DNA from: Parcubacteria group bacterium Gr01-1014_8
GTDB taxonomy: Bacteria > Patescibacteriota > Minisyncoccia > Phycocordibacterales > UBA2100
Direction of reading: 5' to 3'
Assembly: GCA_007376385.1 (NCBI GenBank)
Contig: VMGC01000004.1
Coordinates: forward strand, 71,207-135,206
DNA length: 64,000 nt
In this document: positions 1,918 through 34,242 of the stretch, one piece after another
Numbering within the stretch: position 1 is the stretch's first letter
Layout: each line of letters opens with the position of its first letter
Notes under the pieces: model-generated
The model's database searches: none
The model's input: the letters and a program-made list of their open reading frames with translations, nothing else
What the model was told of the DNA's origin: nothing
Position numbers and translations under genes: made by a program

Positions 1918-4875
1918 ATGAAAAGTTACGATCATAAACGTATAGAACGAAAGTGGCAGGCACGCTGGAAGAAATCGAAGCTGTACAAGACTGCCGATAC
2001 GGTAAAAGGTAAGAAAAATTATTATTTGCTAACTGAATTTCCGTATCCGTCTGGCAATTTGCACGTCGGACACTGGTACGCTTTTTCTGTACCGGACATT
2101 TTAGCAAGAGCGCTCCGCATGCAAGGCAAGAATGTGATGTATCCGTTCGGCTTTGATGCATTCGGATTGCCTGCGGAAAACGCAGCCATAAAAAATAAGT
2201 TGAATCCTCGAAAATGGACCCTCGGCAACATCAAGTACATGAAAAAACAGATAACCTCGATGGGTGCATCGTTTGATTGGTCTCGAGAACTCGCTACGTG
2301 CGATCCTGAATACTACAAGTGGACGCAGTGGCAGTTTTTGCAATTTTTTAAGGCAGGACTCGCATATCGAAAAGAGACAGCAGTCAATTGGTGCCCTTCG
2401 TGCAAGACAGTGCTTGCGAACGAGCAGGTAGTGGATGGAAAATGCGAACGATGCGGAACGGAAGTGATTCAGAAGCAAATGCTTCAATGGAACTTAAAAA
2501 TCACCGACTATGCGGACCGTCTTATTGACGATTTGAGCACGCTGGATTGGCCTGAACAGATAAAGGAATCGCAGAAAAATTGGATAGGACGTTCTGAAGG
2601 CGCCGAGATAGATTTCAGGCTCACAGGAAATGTAGGCGATGACTCACGGTATCTGATCCTCCACGGCAGAGAAGGGAAGCCCACGAGCGTCTTTATTCCA
2701 TGGCTCAAAGAAGAACTGGAAAAAGCTGGACATGAAGTGGAAGTGCCACAGCTTCCCAACACGAATGAACCGAATGCATATGAACAGGCAGAATACATCC
2801 TCAAGAACTGCACCGTAGATGAAAAAACAGTTGTGATAGGCCACTCGATAGGAGGAGTTACAGCGCTGCGTCTCTTGGAGAAGGGCGCAAAGGTTAGGCG
2901 CGTTATATTGGTCGCGACACCGTACTCAGGAAGATTTTTGGATGGTAAGAAACGGCCGAGCGTCACAGATTCCGTGAAGAAGGGGTTCGATTTCGAGACG
3001 ATACGGAACAATACAAAGAGCATCATTGTTATGCCGGATGTAAAAGATGACAGAGTTCCATTTTCCGACGCCGAGAGCTATGCGCAGAAACTGGCCGGGA
3101 TGCTGGTCCATGGCAGGGGAGAGGAGAAGCATTTTATGGGTAAGATAGAGCCGGATGTATTGATGTGCCTTTGCCCCACTATCCGCGTTTTTACGACGCG
3201 AGCCGACACGCTTTTCGGGGCGACCTACATGGTCTTGTCCCCGGAACATCCATGGGTACGGTTAGCGATAGATGATGATCACAAAGTTTTAGAAAATAAG
3301 GATGAGGTAAAGGAATACGTCACAGCGGCGAATAAAAAAACTGAGCTGGAACGCCTCACGGAACAAAAAGAAAAGACCGGGGTGAGGCTGAAAGGCGTTG
3401 AGGGAGTAAACCCCGCTACGGGCGAGAAGATACCGATATTCGTAGCAGACTACGTGCTTGCGCACTACGGGACAGGGGCCATCATGGCGGTCCCGGCGCA
3501 CGATGAGCGCGACTTTGCATTTGCCAAGAAATTTGAGCTGCCGATACGAGATGTGATCTCTACTGGAAAGATGGAATCCGGCGTGTTCGCAGGAGAAGGA
3601 GTGTTGGTGAATTCCGGCGCGTTCAATGGGCTAAAAAGTATCGAGGCTAAGAGCACGCTCACCGATAAATTTGGCCGCAGTAAAATCACGTACAAACTCC
3701 GCGATTGGATAGTTTCGCGCCAGCGTTACTGGGGAGTTCCAATACCCATCGTCCACTGCGAAAGGTGTGGAGACGTCGCTATTCCTGATCCACAGCTTCC
3801 CGTTACATTGCCGGAAATCAAAGATTATTTGCCAACCGGAGACGGAAAATCGCCTCTCGCAAAAGCCAAAAAGTGGGTCAAAGTGAAATGTCCGCAGTGC
3901 AAAGGGACGGCAGAAAGAGAAACAGATACTCTCGATACGTTCGTCGATTCATCCTGGTACTTTTTGCGGTACGCGGACACAATAAACAAAAAAAAGTTTG
4001 CCGATATGAAAAAGATGGATGCATGGATGCCGGTAGATCTCTATTCCGGAGGAGCAGAACACACAACGATGCACCTCCTCTATTCTCGCTTCTGGCAGAA
4101 GGCGCTCTACGATCTAAAGCTCGTTAAGGACAGCGAGCCGTACACGCGAAGGATGAATCGTTCCATCATTCTTGGTCCAGACGGGCAAAAGATGTCGAAA
4201 TCCCGAGGCAACGTGATAGACCCGGATGCTGTTGTCGCGAAACTCGGCGCAGACACCGTGCGTATGTACCTTGCCTTCATAGGTCCGTATAATGAGGTTT
4301 CGAACTATCCGTGGAATCCGGATGGTGTGGTAGGTATTCGCCGTTTTCTCGAGCGTGTTTGGCGCCTCCGCGACCGACTTACGATATCGGTCAAGAAAAG
4401 TGACGGACATACGATATCGAACATCGAACGGATGCTGCATGTAACGATTAAAAAGGTGGGGGACGATATCACTGCCCTGAAATTCAATACTGCCATCGCG
4501 CAGATGATGTCGTTTATGAACGAAGCAGAGAGTAAAGGGATCACAAAGGCGCAATACGAGACACTGCTTCGGCTTCTTGCCCCGTTCGCTCCTCATATTG
4601 CAGACGAACTTTGGAGCATGATGGGACACAAGAAGTCGGTTCATATTGAAAAATGGCCCGCATTCGATCCGCATAAACTCGCGTCGTCGTCGTTTACAAT
4701 TGCGGTACAAGTGAATGGCAAGACACGAACTCAAATCACCATACCTGCTGCAGTGAAGGAAGACGCCGTGAAGGAACAGGCTGAAACAGCTGCAGGAAAA
4801 TGGTTGGAGGGAAAGGCTATAAAAAAGATCATCTACGTGCCCGGCCGCATCGTCAACATCGTCGCGGGCGAATAG
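1918..4875 (+). CDS. leuS: leucyl-tRNA synthetase with embedded alpha/beta-hydrolase domain
   Basis: HVGH (HIGH), CPSC...CERC zinc knuckle, NWIGRSEGAEIDF, TTRADTLFGATY editing threonine-rich motif, KMSKS; 985 aa with an extra ~184-aa insert (aa 238-421). Confidence 0.95.
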   Translation: MKSYDHKRIERKWQARWKKSKLYKTADTVKGKKNYYLLTEFPYPSGNLHVGHWYAFSVPDILARALRMQGKNVMYPFGFDAFGLPAENAAIKNKLNPRKWTLGNIKYMKKQITSMGASFDWSRELATCDPEYYKWTQWQFLQFFKAGLAYRKETAVNWCPSCKTVLANEQVVDGKCERCGTEVIQKQMLQWNLKITDYADRLIDDLSTLDWPEQIKESQKNWIGRSEGAEIDFRLTGNVGDDSRYLILHGREGKPTSVFIPWLKEELEKAGHEVEVPQLPNTNEPNAYEQAEYILKNCTVDEKTVVIGHSIGGVTALRLLEKGAKVRRVILVATPYSGRFLDGKKRPSVTDSVKKGFDFETIRNNTKSIIVMPDVKDDRVPFSDAESYAQKLAGMLVHGRGEEKHFMGKIEPDVLMCLCPTIRVFTTRADTLFGATYMVLSPEHPWVRLAIDDDHKVLENKDEVKEYVTAANKKTELERLTEQKEKTGVRLKGVEGVNPATGEKIPIFVADYVLAHYGTGAIMAVPAHDERDFAFAKKFELPIRDVISTGKMESGVFAGEGVLVNSGAFNGLKSIEAKSTLTDKFGRSKITYKLRDWIVSRQRYWGVPIPIVHCERCGDVAIPDPQLPVTLPEIKDYLPTGDGKSPLAKAKKWVKVKCPQCKGTAERETDTLDTFVDSSWYFLRYADTINKKKFADMKKMDAWMPVDLYSGGAEHTTMHLLYSRFWQKALYDLKLVKDSEPYTRRMNRSIILGPDGQKMSKSRGNVIDPDAVVAKLGADTVRMYLAFIGPYNEVSNYPWNPDGVVGIRRFLERVWRLRDRLTISVKKSDGHTISNIERMLHVTIKKVGDDITALKFNTAIAQMMSFMNEAESKGITKAQYETLLRLLAPFAPHIADELWSMMGHKKSVHIEKWPAFDPHKLASSSFTIAVQVNGKTRTQITIPAAVKEDAVKEQAETAAGKWLEGKAIKKIIYVPGRIVNIVAGE

Positions 4876-15547: not shown

Positions 15548-16683
15548 AGCGGCTCGTGGGAGAGCGCGGTCTCGAGAAGAATGGTCGCAAGCTTCCCTCC
15601 CGCATCGGGTCGTGCAAATTGTGCGGCCGCGGCGGACATCTTCGCCCGAGTCATCTCATCGTTCATTACTCTGTCTATTTCTGCAGCAAGGAGATGCGGC
15701 GTCAAATTCTTTTGATCAACGACAACAGATGCTCCCGTTCTTGCATATGAGAACGCATTCTCCGTCTGATCATTTGAGATCTCCTTTGGGAGAGGAATAA
15801 TGATGCTCGGCAATTTCCACGATGCTATTTCAAAAATGGTGCCGGACCCCGCTCGGGCAACAACGAGCGATGCAATTCCCGCTGTCATTCGCAGAGCAAG
15901 CGTGTTTAGCAGTCCGAATGTACGGTAGCGTTCTTTGTACGGCGAATCTTTGAGGATGACGTTAGCTATCCCATTCAATTCTTCAAGATTAGATTTTCCG
16001 GTTTGGTGAACGACATTATATTTAGAGAGCAAGTCGGGGAGAGCGTTGAGTACGGCCTCATTTATTGCCTGTGCTCCCTGCGAGCCTCCCATGATAAAGA
16101 CTGTCGCTCGCGGCTGAAGTTTGAGAAATTCATATCCGCCCTCTTTCGTCGGATTCTCTATCTCTTTTCGTATCGGGTGTCCAATGAGAGCAATGCGCGA
16201 CTTCACTTTCGATGAATATTGCGCAACAGCTTCTGGATGAGCAACGGCGACCCATTTGGCGAATTTCGATGACCACAACGAGACTCGTCCGGGCTTTGCG
16301 TCTGCGTCGTATATGACAACCGGAATGTTTAAGGTGCGCGCTGCGTAGAGAGTCGGAAACGCCGCGTAACCGCCGGTAGAAAAGACGACATCAGGATAGA
16401 TTGAAAATAATTGGAAAATTGATTTGATTATGCCGACGAACGTCTTGAAAACGTCAAACACGTTAAGAATGCTCGGATATGTGCGCAACTTTCCTGCAGG
16501 CGAAGGCCGATAGGAAATATCATGCTCGACAAGCGCTGCGTCATCAAACGCAGGCGGACCAATGTAGAAAAATTCAGGCGAAACAAGCCGCCGCGCATCC
16601 ACGAGATCCTCAATGTGCTCCGCAACTGCAATGAGGGGATAAAAATGTCCGCCAGAGCCCCCTCCCGTGAAGACGATGCGCAT
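15544..16683 (-). CDS. murG: UDP-GlcNAc:lipid I GlcNAc transferase
   Basis: MRIVFTGGGSGGHFYPLIAV N-terminal G-loop; full-length collinearity with MurG. Confidence 0.92.
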   Translation of the reverse strand: MRIVFTGGGSGGHFYPLIAVAEHIEDLVDARRLVSPEFFYIGPPAFDDAALVEHDISYRPSPAGKLRTYPSILNVFDVFKTFVGIIKSIFQLFSIYPDVVFSTGGYAAFPTLYAARTLNIPVVIYDADAKPGRVSLWSSKFAKWVAVAHPEAVAQYSSKVKSRIALIGHPIRKEIENPTKEGGYEFLKLQPRATVFIMGGSQGAQAINEAVLNALPDLLSKYNVVHQTGKSNLEELNGIANVILKDSPYKERYRTFGLLNTLALRMTAGIASLVVARAGSGTIFEIASWKLPSIIIPLPKEISNDQTENAFSYARTGASVVVDQKNLTPHLLAAEIDRVMNDEMTRAKMSAAAAQFARPDAGGKLATILLETALSHEPL

Positions 16684-29521: not shown

Positions 29522-30616
29522 CTACAGGCCTTCAGCGCGCAAGTTCTCAATGAGAATTTTCGCGCTTTTCGAAAGTTTTTTCGGAAATTCAATATTCACC
29601 CTAACCAATAGATCTCCTCGACTCCCTCGTCCTGATGGCACACCTTTTCCGCGTACTCGAATGAACTCTCCATGCGTAACGCCGGCAGGAACAGTGACCG
29701 TCGTCTCACCGTCCAGCGATTGTATCGTGTAGTCTCCGCCAAGCAGTGCGTCAGTAAGTTTTATCGGCAGCACCATAACGAGATTGCTCCCGTCGCGCGT
29801 AAATACTTTGTCTGCTTTTACGTGCAATTTCACATAGAGGTCTCCCGCTGATACTCCAGGAGCAGCCTCCCCCCTCCCCGGCATTCGTATCATCTCGCCA
29901 TTTTCAACACCAGCAGGAACACTCACGCGGATCTCTTCCTCTCTCTTTGCTACGCCTTCGCCGTTGCATGCCGTGCATGGCTGATCCGGCACTTCCCGTC
30001 GGCCATGGCACTGCGGGCATGTCCTCACTGATGTAAACGAACCGAAAAACGAGTTGCGGCTTTCGTGTATCTGACCTTTGCCATTGCACATCGTACACTC
30101 TGTCATCCGGGAACCCTTCTTGGCACCAGTACCAGTGCAGACGTCGCATGTTGTAACTTTTGAGATCAGAACTCGTCTCTCCGTCCCAAAGATAGCGTCT
30201 TTGAATGGTATTTCTATATCTATCGAGATGTCGCGGCCTCTTTTTTGCTTTCGGCCCGTAGCGCCGCCGAAAAATTCGCCAAAAATATCACCGAGGTCGA
30301 ATTCAACTCCCTCTCCGCTGAAACCGCTTCCTCCTGCACCGGAAAATCCAGCAAATTTAGAGAAATCAAATCCGCCGAATCCTCCCGCGCCTCCGCCGCC
30401 TGAAAATGTCTTCCCGTACGCGTCATACTCTGCCCGTTTCTTCTTATCAGACAAGACGGCGTATGCCTCACTGACCTCCTTGAACTTCGCTTCGTCTCCG
30501 CCTTTTTTATCCGGATGAAATTTATGTGCAAGCGAGCGAAAGGCTTTTTTAATATCCTCCTCCGTCGCAGTTTTCTGTATACCCAATATTTGGTAGTAGT
30601 CTTTCATATGGATCAC
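29522..30616 (-). CDS. dnaJ: chaperone DnaJ
   Basis: J-domain with HPD, Gly-rich linker, four CxxCxGxG zinc-finger repeats. Confidence 0.93.
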
Positions 30617-30902: not shown

Positions 30903-32759
30903 TCAATCTTTTTTTGGTTCTTGGCCATCCGCAGGAGGCGTCTCGCCGCCTTGGGCGGGACCCTTCGACATGGCTTCGCCGATGGCACTCATCGCGGCAG
31001 AAAGCGCATCTACTGCATTTTTTATGGCGACCGCATCATTCCCCGCTCTGGCCGTTTTTAGCGCATCTATCTTCTCCTGAACATTTTTCTTCACATCAGA
31101 ACCGATCTTCTCTCCATGCTCGCGCAGAGCTTTCTCCGCGGCGTACACAAGTTGGTCAGCGGCGTTCTGTGCCTCCACCAATTCCTTCTTTTTCTTGTCA
31201 GACTCGGCGTTGGCATCAGCATCCGAGCGCATTTTTTCAACGTCCGCATCAGTTAATCCGGAACGCGCCTCTATCCGTATTGATTGCTCCTTACCAGACG
31301 TTTTTTCCTTCGCTTTGACAGAGAGAATGCCGTTTGCATCTATATCGAAACTGACCTCGATTTGCGGCATGCCTCGTGGCGACGGCGGAATACCGTCCAG
31401 GTTGAACCGTCCCAAAGACTTATTGTCTGCAGCCATCGGTCTCTCGCCTTGTACGACATGTATCTCGACGGACGGTTGGTTGTCCGCCGCCGTCGAAAAC
31501 ACCTGCGATTTTGAAGTAGGAATAGTCGTGTTTCTTTCAATTAATTTTGTTGCAACCCCTCCGAGTGTCTCTATGCCGAAAGAAAGAGGTATGACATCGA
31601 GAAGAAGCACATCCTTTACGTCGCCCTGCAAAATTCCTCCCTGGATAGCCGCACCGATGGCAACGACCTCGTCCGGGTTTACTCCCATGTGCGGCTTTTT
31701 TCCGAAAAAATCCTCAACTGCCTTTTGAAGCGCCGGCATTCGTGTTTGTCCTCCCACGAGAATAACTTCATTGATATCTCCTATTTTGAACGGCGAGGCT
31801 TCCATTGCGCGTTTTGTTATAGCAATAGCTCTATCAACAAATTCGCGAGAAAGGTCCTCAAGCTTCCCGCGCGTCATCTTAATAAGGAGATGCCGGGGGC
31901 CGGACGAATCCGACGTGATGAACGGAATATTGATCTCAGTTTCTAGCGCGCTTGAGAGTTCTATTTTGGCTTTCTCTGCACCTTCATCAAGTCGTTGCCG
32001 TGCCAAGGGATCATTACGAACATCAATGCCTGACTCTTTTTTGAATTCATCAGCTATCCAATTCATGATATTCTGGTCCAGATCTTTTCCTCCAAGATGG
32101 GCATCGCCATCGGTTGAACGGACTTCTATCACGTCGTCACCCACTTCCAGAACGGAGATGTCGAACGTGCCTCCGCCAAAGTCGAACACAACGATTTTTT
32201 CGTTCTTTTTTTTGTTAAAACCATATGCTAAGGCAGCTGCAGTCGGTTCATTGATGATGCGCTTCACATCAAGTCCCGCTATCTTGCCCGCATCACGCGT
32301 TGCCTGACGCTGTGAATCGTTGAAATATGCGGGAACGGTAATGACCGCTTCCGTGATCGTCTCGCCCAGCTTCGCTTCAGCGTCCTGTTTTAACTTTTGC
32401 AGGATCATGGCAGAGATCTCCTCTGGCCGGTACCACTTAGAACCCATGTGCACCTCTATGCCGCCATTCGAGCTTTTCTGCATCTCAAAAGGCACCGCTT
32501 TCCTATCCTTTTCTACTGCAGCTTCGTCGAACGAGTGTCCGATGAAGCGCTTTATTTGATAAATTGTGTTTTTCGGATTCGTAACCGCTTGTCTTTTTGC
32601 AAGAAGTCCGACAAGCCGCTCCCCTGTCTTTGAGGTGGCGACAACGGACGGCGTCGTCCGAGCGCCCTCAGCATTTTCTATGATGTCAGGCTCGCCTCCT
32701 TTCACTATTGCAATCGCTGAATTCGTCGTTCCAAGATCTATGCCGAGTATTTTTCCCAT
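30903..32759 (-). CDS. dnaK: chaperone DnaK (Hsp70)
   Basis: [17 protein letters not shown], full-length Hsp70 collinearity. Confidence 0.97.
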
Positions 32760-32809
32760 ATTTTTATAATATATGTTTTAACCTGCATCATTTTATCCCT
32801 ACGCTGAGA

Positions 32810-33626
32810 TTGTGCAAGTCAGACTTGCACAAACATGACATATTTATGAGCTGTCGTCAAAATCCATTGCCAAACGGACAAATTCATTGTCAAACGCATA
32901 CACACCATTTAATACGTCCTTTGCTGAATTTAAGAATTTCCGTTCGTCGGTTTCAACGACCTCATCAAGAGCGTCGTAGTCGAGTATCTGGGATCGCCGC
33001 GAGCCTAGAACGTCTATAAGGCTCGCGAATGGATATGCTCGTGCCTGCTGTAATGCCTCATCGTATTTCTGAAAAGCACTATCTAAGCCGCCGGGGAATC
33101 TCTCGAACGGATTTTTGACGGTAATGTATGCAAGTAAATATTGCAGATATTCATCATCATGGACGGTGCGAGCTTTGTACGAACTCTGAAACAGAGTTCC
33201 CTCTTCGCTGTACTTGGCGTTGAAATATGCTGCCATACTCGTGCATAGTCTCTGCATAAAAGCGCTGATACCATTTTCTACGTTCTCGCGTACGAGCAAA
33301 TGGAAGTGATTATCCATAAGACAGAACGCTAAGATTGACACGTATGGCTTTTGCTTTCGCCAATGTTCAGGACGTGAAAATCCGGCACGAATATTGTCTG
33401 GGCCGATATCGCGCTCCCAATTCCGCGGCGTGTTGTCGTCGTTTAGGTAACGTAGGAGTTTAAGAAATCGCCACCGGTCGTCATCGTCTCGGATTATGCT
33501 CATGCCGCGTGTACCTCTCTTCATTACATGCACGTACGAGCCGACGGAATACGGTTCTCTTCTCATACTTGACAGATTACATTATTCTTCTGCACTTGTG
33601 CAAGTCAGACTTGCACAACGCATGAC
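32810..33626 (-). mobile_element. IS200/IS605- or RAYT-like unit: HUH Y1 transposase gene bracketed by two direct copies of a 30-nt motif containing the perfect palindrome TTGTGCAAGTC-A-GACTTGCACAA
   Basis: Copies at 32810-32839 and 33596-33626 are near-identical; the only gene between them is the Y1 transposase homolog; the unit sits between grpE and dnaK. Confidence 0.65.
32844..33566 (-). CDS. IS200-like / REP-associated tyrosine transposase (HUH Y1 superfamily)
   Basis: YVHVMKRGTRGMSIIRDDDDRWRFLKLL, LMDNHFHLLV (HUH motif), YKARTVHDDEYLQYLLAYITVKNP (catalytic Tyr region). Confidence 0.75.
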   Translation of the reverse strand: MRREPYSVGSYVHVMKRGTRGMSIIRDDDDRWRFLKLLRYLNDDNTPRNWERDIGPDNIRAGFSRPEHWRKQKPYVSILAFCLMDNHFHLLVRENVENGISAFMQRLCTSMAAYFNAKYSEEGTLFQSSYKARTVHDDEYLQYLLAYITVKNPFERFPGGLDSAFQKYDEALQQARAYPFASLIDVLGSRRSQILDYDALDEVVETDERKFLNSAKDVLNGVYAFDNEFVRLAMDFDDSS

Positions 33627-33636
33627 TTTTCCAGTT

Positions 33637-34242
33637 TCAACCCTCTAATTTGTACATTGTGATATGCGCCGGACGAAGAATGCGACCCCCTAACTTCCAA
33701 CCTCGCCTCACGATACGAGCAACAGTACCAGGCTCGCCCTCTTCATCAACTTCTTGCACGATGTCATGCATTGTCGGATCGTATTTCTCGCCCGGCTTTC
33801 CAAAAGGCACCACACTGGCACTTTCAAGAGCACTTTCGAGCTGTGCCTTTATCCCTTCCAAGCCTGCCCTCCACGTCGCATCCACAGTCTGCCAGGATGG
33901 TGAGAGGGATGCCATGTCAAAACTATCGAGTGCTGGGATGAGAGCCTCGATAAGGCGAGCTACCCTTGCAGTACTTGCCCTTTCGACCATACTCTCGGCT
34001 TCCTTTTTTTGGTTTACCGCATCAGCTTTGCATCTTTGCCATCCATCCAAGAATTCCTGCCGTTCCTTTTTTGCCTGCGCAAGTTCATCGCGCAACTTTT
34101 TCAACTTCGCTTTTGCGGCATCAAGATCGCTGAGCTCCGCCTCGTCGTCGACAAGTCGAGACGGATAGTCCTCGGGTTCGAAATCGATATCTTCCTTTAG
34201 GTCATCGTCATCCATCGCGCAAAGTATATCAAAATTGTGCAA
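33637..34242 (-). CDS. grpE: nucleotide exchange factor GrpE
   Basis: Coiled-coil N-terminal half; C-terminal GEKYDPTMHDIV GrpE signature; gene order grpE-dnaK-dnaJ. Confidence 0.9.
   Translation of the reverse strand: MHNFDILCAMDDDDLKEDIDFEPEDYPSRLVDDEAELSDLDAAKAKLKKLRDELAQAKKERQEFLDGWQRCKADAVNQKKEAESMVERASTARVARLIEALIPALDSFDMASLSPSWQTVDATWRAGLEGIKAQLESALESASVVPFGKPGEKYDPTMHDIVQEVDEEGEPGTVARIVRRGWKLGGRILRPAHITMYKLEG

Follow-up and report, generated by a model that had tools for sequence, protein, structure and literature searches.

REPtrons, in which the gene of a REP-associated tyrosine transposase (RAYT) is accompanied by its cognate repetitive extragenic palindromes (REPs), are known for the Y1/HUH superfamily, and cleavage there falls at a short motif close to the hairpin foot (PMC6006769, PMC3733652, PMC5581495). 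The enzymes of the IS200/IS605 insertion sequences (IS) and the RAYTs alike cut at a short motif whose position is set relative to the hairpin foot, and act on the lagging-strand template (PMC6006769). Copies of classical REPs are also located inside genes, often genes of replication and repair, and within 20 nt past open reading frames (ORFs) (PMC3733652, PMC6006769). We describe here a HUH transposase homologue encoded between grpE and dnaK and bracketed by two copies of a palindrome, in a stretch of 64,000 nt (the window) of the genome of Parcubacteria group bacterium Gr01-1014_8 (contig VMGC01000004.1, positions 71,207–135,206). The locus is probably a REPtron-like module, that is, a domesticated, single-copy, vertically inherited RAYT-like Y1/HUH gene with two inverted cognate palindromes. 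Literature searches returned no report of a RAYT in a dnaK operon, nor of this palindrome. Coordinates are positions in the window; L or P followed by a number denotes a homologous contig or locus, or a protein homologue, respectively.

The HUH protein is a member of the Y1/HUH superfamily. The 240-aa ORF between grpE and dnaK, assigned to this family by the original prediction from the letters of the window alone, matched the Pfam family PF01797 (Y1_Tnp) over residues 75–149 with 44.1 bits for a cut-off of 23 (E 2.7e-11). The motifs DNHFHLL and AYITVKNP correspond to residues 85–91 and 146–153. The homologue search yielded 318 proteins at E ≤ 0.001. Among the 120 best listed, identity was 48–73% and nearly all lengths were in the range of 209–274 aa; the few homologues with a source name came from Parcubacteria, Kaiserbacteria, Paceibacterota or Taylorbacteria. 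Each protein cluster corresponded to one or few contigs. In an alignment of 27 members, N86-H87-F88-H89, Y147, I148, K151 and N152 were invariant, and this invariance of the HUH and tyrosine residues suggests that the catalytic apparatus is intact. The tyrosine motif reads Y147-I-T-V-K-N152-P153 (Y-x4-N-P), with an invariant NP. The AlphaFold model was confident (pLDDT 90.3, pTM 0.88), its best structural match was 4er8_A, the Escherichia coli REP-associated tyrosine transposase with a REP hairpin (Foldseek E 1.5e-5), and the predicted fold is of the TnpA type that marks the superfamily. The PADLOC search of the protein for anti-phage defence gave no match.

The 23-nt palindrome TTGTGCAAGTCAGACTTGCACAA is perfect (11-1-11). 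Its only matches in the window, with up to three mismatches allowed, were the two flanking copies (Table 1), both of which had been described at the outset, and none was expected by chance (0 in 100 shuffles). As single-stranded DNA (ssDNA), each copy is predicted to fold into a 10-bp stem with a 3-nt loop (z about −4), with an energy of −11.7 kcal/mol for copy 2 (z −4.0) and of −9.8 to −10.1 kcal/mol for copy 1. The hexamer CATGAC, which had been reported to follow both copies, is indeed present (32834–32839 and 33621–33626) but is out of register, with a gap of 1 nt behind copy 1 and of 2 nt behind copy 2. As a consistent feature of the locus it was discarded: (C/T)ATGAC strings were seen near the grpE-side copy in a few relatives, at varying offsets and on either side. 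The same orientation that had been ascribed to the two copies was a reading of the central base only, and is contradicted by the oriented motif GTCAA described below, which shows them inverted and both pointing inward. An imperfect palindrome, TGCAAGTAAATATTGCA, with a 76% match to the core of the flanking palindrome, was noted inside the HUH ORF at 33129–33145; it overlies the codons of the helix carrying the catalytic tyrosine (LQYLLAYI) and is probably there by chance.

Comparison of the homologous loci indicates that the palindromes belong to the HUH gene and not to dnaK. Cognate palindromes bracketed the HUH gene in the window and at every homologue locus examined, in at least six genomic contexts. 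The gene was located between those of a TPR protein and an unknown gene in L105, next to gap in L106, next to a LamininG gene in L107, between an NTP-transferase gene and a DUF1761 gene in L108, between scpA and scpB in L168, and next to a ComEA-like gene in L008. The palindromes of these non-dnaK contexts had the same design as those of the window and a different sequence: TGTGCATACC-N-GGTATGCACA in L105 and L168, TGTACATACC-N-GGTATGTACA in L108, TGTAAGAGTC-N-GACTCTTACA in L107 and GTAGGAAGTC-N-GACTTCCCAC in L106. Variants also existed within the dnaK synteny, ...AAGCT-N-AGCTT... in L166 and ...AGGCT-T-GGCTT... in L167. At the latter locus (L167:2880–3810) the palindrome TGTGCAGGCT-T-GGCTTGCACA contained two G-T wobbles when read on the sense strand, whereas its opposite strand had two A-C mismatches. 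The full hairpin is thus possible on one strand only. The same A-to-G variant recurred at several other sites.

The changes in the stem were analysed across eight lineage versions. Both-side changes were found at 9 of 10 stem positions and 98.8% of the cells stayed paired. None of 500 shuffles reached the observed value on four of five measures, and 22 of 500 did so for further pair types. The lineage versions had been selected as palindromes, which makes the covariation informative and the pairing itself not. Over all sites the outer two base pairs covaried (z 6.2 and 5.2), and the z values fell to 0.4 and 1.5 in the within-genome shuffle, which places the covariation at the level of lineages. 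The layout of a RAYT with its cognate REPs, one of the two architectures named in the original prediction, is thus the one that agrees with the data, as the palindromes follow the HUH gene, co-vary with it and are dispersed in genomes.

The arrangement grpE-palindrome-HUH-palindrome-dnaK was found in 12 Parcubacteria genomes, a count that combines the loci of protein homologues with loci added from the palindrome genome scan, and their HUH proteins were 54–73% identical. In the window the minus-strand gene order is rpsI, a small membrane-protein ORF, grpE, the HUH ORF, dnaK and dnaJ (ORF list and Pfam). The synteny rpoA-rplQ-rplM-rpsI-grpE-HUH-dnaK-(x)-dnaJ was recognised for the homologues P0020, P0025, P0081, P0042 and P0052 (54–62% identity), where both intergenic regions carried the same palindrome or a close variant. 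Pairwise identities in seven grpE-HUH-dnaK genomes were 56–69% for HUH, 80–87% for DnaK and 45–69% for GrpE, and the intergenic DNA outside the palindromes could not be aligned between relatives. The correlation of the HUH distances with those of DnaK (r = 0.50) and of GrpE (r = 0.10) was uninformative, since the seven genomes are nearly equidistant. There was one HUH locus per genome among the fetched loci, and one metagenomic lineage had a second, approximately 35% identical paralogue. A search of the junction in relatives for an empty site had been suggested in the original prediction, and such a site was found on contig L146. There, grpE and dnaK are 24 nt apart, without the HUH gene and without a palindrome upstream of dnaK; the DnaK of L146 is 77% identical to that of the window. 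The transposase annotation between grpE and dnaK is neither an assembly artefact nor a recent insertion.

The distribution of the palindrome beyond the locus was obtained from a scan with TGYGMARGTYNRACTTGCACA, using one genome per species, which returned 98 stretches. The matches that were palindromic on both strands came almost all from metagenome-assembled genomes (MAGs) of Patescibacteria, and those in other phyla were mostly single, one-strand and imperfect. Twelve Patescibacteria MAGs possessed 3–9 exact-pattern copies each. For the window's genome, the two flanking copies were the only ones within the 64 kb covered. A census of 92 Patescibacteria sites, with crude gene calls and intragenic cases checked singly by translation and Pfam, assigned 20 sites to the flanks of a HUH gene, 28 to in-frame positions inside coding genes, 19 to the first 25 nt past a stop codon and 9 to the vicinity of a gene 5' end only; the location of the other 16 was unclear.

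Among the genes faced by solo intergenic copies were groEL (in one Kaiserbacteria genome), tuf, map, aspS, carB and a LAGLIDADG gene. A heat-shock regulon was considered and rejected, as these genes form no coherent regulon. The copy before groEL (L094:7684, Kaiserbacteria MFLL01000011) lies 15 nt past a 92-aa groES-like ORF and 33 nt before groEL, in the only other chaperone operon seen with a copy of the palindrome. Another Kaiserbacteria solo copy (L017:6509) is situated 138 nt upstream of a LAGLIDADG-type homing-endonuclease-like ORF, identified by reading its translation only. Three solo copies (L056:403, L070:6085 and L076:1431) were contained in much longer perfect palindromes with stems of 15–20 bp and differing outer parts; solo copies of this type were mostly in one Wildermuthbacteria genome.

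The in-frame copies occupied housekeeping genes. A copy in the LeuRS gene was present at the same position in six genomes, where it encodes CASQTCT, and a copy in MurB, also in six genomes, encodes VQVRLAQ. The other hosts were ValRS, Dus, a thioredoxin-reductase-like gene, DnaE, UvrB, a MutY-like gene, TruB, SMC, TrmD, a reverse transcriptase and a nuclease; the copy in the reverse-transcriptase gene (PF00078, L054:1180) is just past the YADD motif. Within orthologues the 21-mer was 100% identical in LeuRS and 93% in MurB, versus 64% and 61%, respectively, for the flanking 90 nt, which argues that the constraint acts on DNA. In LaPlata_bin-2928, UvrB and DnaE share a longer element, GTTGTGCAAGTTAAACCTGCACAAC-RAGGACACG, with approximately 14–16 residues extra compared to orthologues, and this looks like recent intragenomic spread. 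The LeuRS gene of the window had no palindrome at the position used in other genomes. This gene (approximately 1918–4875, plus strand) displayed an in-frame insert of about 180 aa at 2632–3177, just before the start of the editing domain (TIRVFTTRADTLFG), that is missing from the 62–79% identical LeuRS of L052. The translation of the insert resembles a small alpha/beta serine hydrolase (..YLILHGREGKP.., ..VVIGHSIGG..), and the LeuRS of L052 carries instead a Nudix-like insert further downstream.

A second palindrome family was detected in metagenomes, with 68 sites, 19 of them at HUH genes, and its behaviour matched that of the first. In-frame copies were located in MurD (at least 13 contigs, over the L.IPG.HN motif), ThrRS, LigA and a NifS-like gene, and one 693-kb contig contained five copies. 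A second HUH paralogue with 34–36% identity (L135:1400–2170 and L119) was observed just downstream of thrS, with its own palindrome TAGCAAGGC-NNN-GCCTTGCTA present twice upstream and once downstream. The thrS gene beside the paralogue carries the family-2 palindrome in frame, and two distinct modules are thus found in one lineage.

The alignment of the in-frame copies revealed a second, oriented motif, GTCAA, exactly 24 nt past the 21-mer in five unrelated genes. When the 184 flanks were counted, GTCAA was found 32 times at +24, 8 times at +23, twice at +25, once at +22 and 0–1 times elsewhere. This corresponds to 40 of 184 flanks at +23/24, for a chance expectation of about 0.18 per offset. 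It was carried by 43 of the 92 sites, and at least 10 more had GCAAG, GCAAC or TCAAG at +24/25. The 24-nt spacer between palindrome and GTCAA was not conserved, and the reading frame in which the motif fell varied from gene to gene. Neither a constraint on the protein nor a mobile unit of 50 nt can therefore account for it. With GTCAA placed downstream, the central base of the palindrome was an A in 37 of 43 composites. The intragenic composites were on the sense strand at 19 of 19 sites, representing 9 independent genes. In the window, the minus strand reads palindrome-N23-GTCAA-GT-ATG and the plus strand palindrome-N24-GTCAA, and inward GTCAA pairs also existed at L012, L014, L018, L020, L036, L042, L048, L055, L072, L099 and L104. 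Judged by this motif, the two copies in the window are inverted relative to each other. By analogy with the IS200/IS605 and RAYT enzymes, GTCAA is a candidate for the site that the protein recognises or cleaves. In IS608, the cleavage motifs are TTAC and TCAA.

No fixed-offset motif was found in the second palindrome family, whose set was dominated by MurD orthologues. After the HUH-side palindrome of that family, GGTAT was noted at +12 (L105:10013–10017 and L168), about 10 nt before the HUH start codon; it is identical to the first five bases of the right arm of the family-2 palindrome and may be a counterpart of GTCAA. In the window, the plus-strand GC skew was positive from 1 to 16 kb and negative from 16 to 64 kb, and most genes past approximately 16 kb were on the minus strand, so that the sense strand is probably the lagging-strand template. 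The sign change near 16000 could reflect a terminus or origin of replication, or else the boundary of a rearrangement.

In the direction of dnaK, the outer arm of palindrome copy 1 reads TTGCAC and was followed, after N16/17, by a hexamer with at least 5/6 matches to TATAAT in 10 of 10 genomes, in which the sequence of the spacer was unconserved. The same TTGCAC/−10 arrangement was present in L166 and L167. The arm appears to be part of the dnaK promoter, and the module very probably gives dnaK its own putative promoter. In the original prediction it had been suggested that dnaK gains an upstream signal of its own, and the conserved pattern supports this at the level of sequence. On the HUH side, weaker −10-like hexamers (xAxxAT) were seen in most relatives at 6–8 nt from the ATG. 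They suggest a leaderless or nearly leaderless HUH transcript, with a predicted start at about 33567–33569 in the window. There was no terminator-like site at the locus, no Rfam match with E up to 1 between 32500 and 34400, and no CIRCE element in the window with up to three mismatches; no hrcA gene adjoined grpE in the window.

Table 1. Annotated features of the grpE-HUH-dnaK locus (coordinates in the 64,000-nt window).
Feature	Position	Strand	Description
grpE	33637–34242	minus	PF01025 GrpE, E 1.7e-30; upstream neighbour; stop codon 18 nt from palindrome copy 2
Palindrome copy 2	33596–33618		grpE/HUH intergenic; TTGTGCAAGTC-A-GACTTGCACAA; HUH-side arm TTGCAC on the minus strand; kept at the same place in relatives
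Weak −10-like hexamer TGTAAT	33576–33581	minus	16 nt past TTGCAC, 9 nt before the HUH ATG
GTCAA (grpE side)	33569–33573	minus	23 nt past copy 2, 2 nt before the HUH start codon
Y1/HUH RAYT-like gene	32844–33566	minus	240 aa; H87/H89, candidate catalytic Y147, N152
C-terminal helical extension of the HUH protein			residues ~155–235
GTCAA (dnaK side)	32856–32860	plus	24 nt past copy 1; antisense, within the last HUH codons
Palindrome copy 1	32810–32832		HUH/dnaK intergenic; 11 nt past the HUH stop codon
Putative dnaK promoter	32790–32817	minus	−35 TTGCAC 32817–32812, 16-nt spacer, −10 TAAAAT 32795–32790
Predicted dnaK transcription start	~32783		
dnaK	30903–32759	minus	PF00012 HSP70, 813.8 bits; downstream neighbour
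dnaJ	29522–30616	minus	after dnaK (ORF list)

We propose the following model for the module, in which we infer ssDNA binding and cleavage by the protein, the role of GTCAA, the activity of the promoters and autoregulation. An ancestor of a Parcubacteria (Paceibacteria/Kaiserbacteria) clade would have acquired the module at the grpE/dnaK junction, where it would have been retained since. By homology with TnpA-REP and with the TnpA of IS200/IS605, the HUH protein would bind the palindrome as an ssDNA hairpin, most likely on the lagging-strand template. The HUH-bound metal and Tyr147 would serve to nick and religate the DNA at a short motif with a set spacing, for which GTCAA, 23–24 nt 3' of the hairpin, is the candidate. 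This activity may have seeded, or may maintain, the few extra copies per genome, past stop codons and in frame in housekeeping genes. The outward arm of the dnaK-side palindrome would supply the −35 (TTGCAC) of a conserved sigma-70-type dnaK promoter, so that dnaK could be transcribed independently of grpE. Likewise, the inward arm of the grpE-side copy would supply the −35 of a weak and nearly leaderless HUH promoter. As palindrome arms take part in both putative promoters, protein binding or hairpin extrusion would be expected to modulate dnaK as well as the HUH gene.

Several observations weigh against the REPtron-like reading. The protein scored 35.2 bits with the NCBIfam REP_Tyr_transpos equivalog, below the cut-off of 80, and its Y-x4-N-P motif is one residue longer than the Y-x3-N-P that defines class 2 RAYTs. 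The PDB sequence-profile search with the HUH protein found no solved relative, only a spurious match at E 0.3, which makes the family remote in sequence. The foot of the hairpin is GTGC in the window, GTAG...CCAC in the L106 lineage and GTAA in L107, and that of the window is not the canonical GT[AG]G. The copy number is far below that of classical REPs. The palindrome sequence is conserved across genera, and REPs are normally species-specific (PMC6006769). The covariation of the outer pairs, a signal of the sequences alone, fits recognition of a hairpin and recognition of a symmetric double-stranded site equally. Finally, all the genomes are MAGs and the gene calls of the census are crude.

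Four other explanations were weighed. An active IS200/IS605-type IS that recently transposed between grpE and dnaK would account for the Y1_Tnp domain and for the compactness of the unit (hairpin, about 30 nt, ORF, about 11 nt, hairpin), and the homologues in several contexts indicate that the module moved on evolutionary time scales. Such an event, and with it the IS200/IS605 minimal element and the recent mobile insertion that had initially been envisaged, is nevertheless extremely improbable. The HUH gene was seen at only one locus per genome, with protein clusters on one or a few contigs, and the same junction is occupied, and fixed, in 12 genomes whose proteins are only 54–73% identical and whose intergenic DNA outside the palindromes cannot be aligned. 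The hairpins are identical and not distinct left and right ends (LE/RE), and tnpB is missing. The protein of 240 aa, with its C-terminal domain and a tyrosine motif ending in NP, differs from the IS200 TnpA of about 150 aa with Y...Q (PMC6006769), and the NCBIfam transpos_IS200 model gave 14 bits, below its cut-off of 55. No sign of current transposition of the HUH gene was seen among the loci examined. It is also very improbable that the palindrome is the operator of a separate heat-shock repressor, like CIRCE for HrcA or HAIR for HspR, with the HUH gene as a mere member of the regulon. The position of both window copies upstream of genes and over −35-like hexamers, the copy between the groES-like gene and groEL in L094, and the lack of an hrcA adjoining grpE and of CIRCE in the window all fit an operator. 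However, the palindromes stay with the HUH gene beside gap, scpB and TPR genes and change in sequence with the HUH lineage, and most other copies are in or just past unrelated housekeeping genes (LeuRS, MurB, ValRS, tuf, map, aspS and carB among them). According to the original prediction, such an operator should be conserved upstream of dnaK in relatives that lack the HUH gene. The empty junction of L146 has no palindrome upstream of dnaK, which leaves the operator without support, and among the loci examined no HUH-less relative had the palindrome upstream of dnaK, groES or clpB.

The palindromes could alternatively act mainly as 3' stem-loops of RNA, with a stabilising or terminating effect on the grpE and HUH transcripts, a role known for many REPs (PMC3733652). 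Both window copies begin 11–18 nt past a stop codon, 19 solo copies are within 25 nt past the end of an ORF, and imperfect copies such as that of L167 keep G-T(U) wobbles on the sense strand. We consider this role unlikely, since no U-tract follows the palindromes and no terminator-like site or Rfam match was found, conservation within a lineage extends to the sequence and not to the pairing alone, the dnaK-side composite runs antisense to transcription, and the association with a DNA-acting HUH enzyme would be left unexplained. A different view concerns the beneficiary of the system: the HUH protein might be chiefly a host factor, either a regulator of itself and of dnaK or a housekeeping ssDNA enzyme for nicking and joining, and the palindrome+N24+GTCAA sites would be selected by the host at fixed chromosomal positions instead of being selfish. 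The enzyme would be co-expressed from the chaperone operon and would act at these sites, for example by processing hairpins on the lagging-strand template or by coupling dnaK transcription to the state of the DNA. We regard this as possible, though doubtful. It draws on the −35 overlap conserved in 10 of 10 genomes, the long retention of the gene in an essential operon, the 93–100% identity of the 21-mer at orthologous in-frame positions with flanks at approximately 60–64%, the fixed motif spacing across unconserved spacers, the 19/19 sense-strand bias of intragenic composites, and the slow evolution of the HUH gene, similar to that of domesticated RAYT groups (PMC5581495). On the other side, the invariant HUH and tyrosine residues speak for retained catalysis and not for binding alone, the longer insert shared by UvrB and DnaE in one genome and absent from orthologues has the look of recent spread, and the genes beside solo copies are functionally incoherent. 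The REPtron-like module remains the reading that we hold to be probable.

The host role of domesticated transposases of the RAYT type is a long-standing question, and the grpE-dnaK locus lends itself unusually well to it. Copies are few, the genomes are tiny, an essential chaperone operon has kept the enzyme gene across genera, and in essential genes both the positions of the cognate sites and their DNA sequence are preserved. The motif GTCAA, previously unnoticed, predicts where the enzyme would cut. The layout of heat-shock genes in these Parcubacteria departs from the textbook hrcA-grpE-dnaK order. If the sites were indeed selected by the host and the protein served as a housekeeping ssDNA factor, this would add a new one, in genome-reduced bacteria, to the cellular roles of domesticated transposases.

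The locus can be compared with several known systems. The CIRCE (HrcA) and HAIR (HspR) elements are, like the palindrome, inverted repeats overlapping the promoters of dnaK and groE operons; they differ in sequence, and the palindrome is tied to the HUH gene, with most of its 92 sites away from chaperone genes. The IS200/IS605 enzymes (TnpA of IS608 and ISDra2) share the HUH/Tyr chemistry, hairpins of about 20 nt and a cleavage motif at a fixed distance (PMC6006769), whereas the HUH gene is apparently single-copy, has identical inverted hairpins and no tnpB, and encodes a longer protein with N and not Q as the metal-binding residue after the tyrosine. Intragenic REPs and the Rickettsia palindromic elements (Di Nocera et al. 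2013, PMC3733652) also occur in frame, many of them in replication and repair genes, which for the present palindromes are UvrB, DnaE, LigA and a MutY-like gene, and within 20 nt past the ends of ORFs. In contrast to those elements, many of the present copies overlay native segments (the L.IPG.HN motif of MurD, a strand of MurB) and do not lengthen the protein, and they occur at the same position in orthologues of different genera with the DNA sequence preserved.

Classified transposases were compared through their published descriptions, in a classification that did not include Patescibacteria (PMC6006769). TnpAY1 subclass 2.1 (TIRYT-like; Quentin et al. 2018, PMC6006769), with NH[YF]H, FQ and a median of 238 aa, resembles the HUH family in its NHFH, FQ and length but is reported without REPs, whereas the HUH family has palindromes. 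Subclass 2.4, with its "double-foot" REPs (PMC6006769), has a similar symmetric hairpin (5' GTGC...GCAC 3') and in-frame intragenic copies, but its proteins are of about 194 aa with YIxNNP. The REPtron of E. coli (TnpA-REP, RAYT, YafM; PDB 4ER8; REP/BIME) is alike in its apparently single-copy gene, in inverted hairpin repeats that also occur elsewhere in the genome, and in a repeat that co-varies with the protein lineage. The protein of the window is only about 12% identical to TnpA-REP and has 240 aa with an extra helical C-terminal part, Y-x4-NP instead of Y-x3-NP, and a hairpin foot GTGC instead of GTAG. There are 3–9 copies per genome versus hundreds, and the repeat is conserved across genera. 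Unlike its E. coli counterpart, the module is fixed in the grpE-dnaK operon, supplies a putative promoter element and has a second motif, GTCAA, 23–24 nt away. The locus is probably a divergent, low-copy REPtron of Patescibacteria, fixed in the grpE-dnaK operon, with an arm co-opted for a putative promoter, cross-genus in-frame copies and a fixed-distance second motif.

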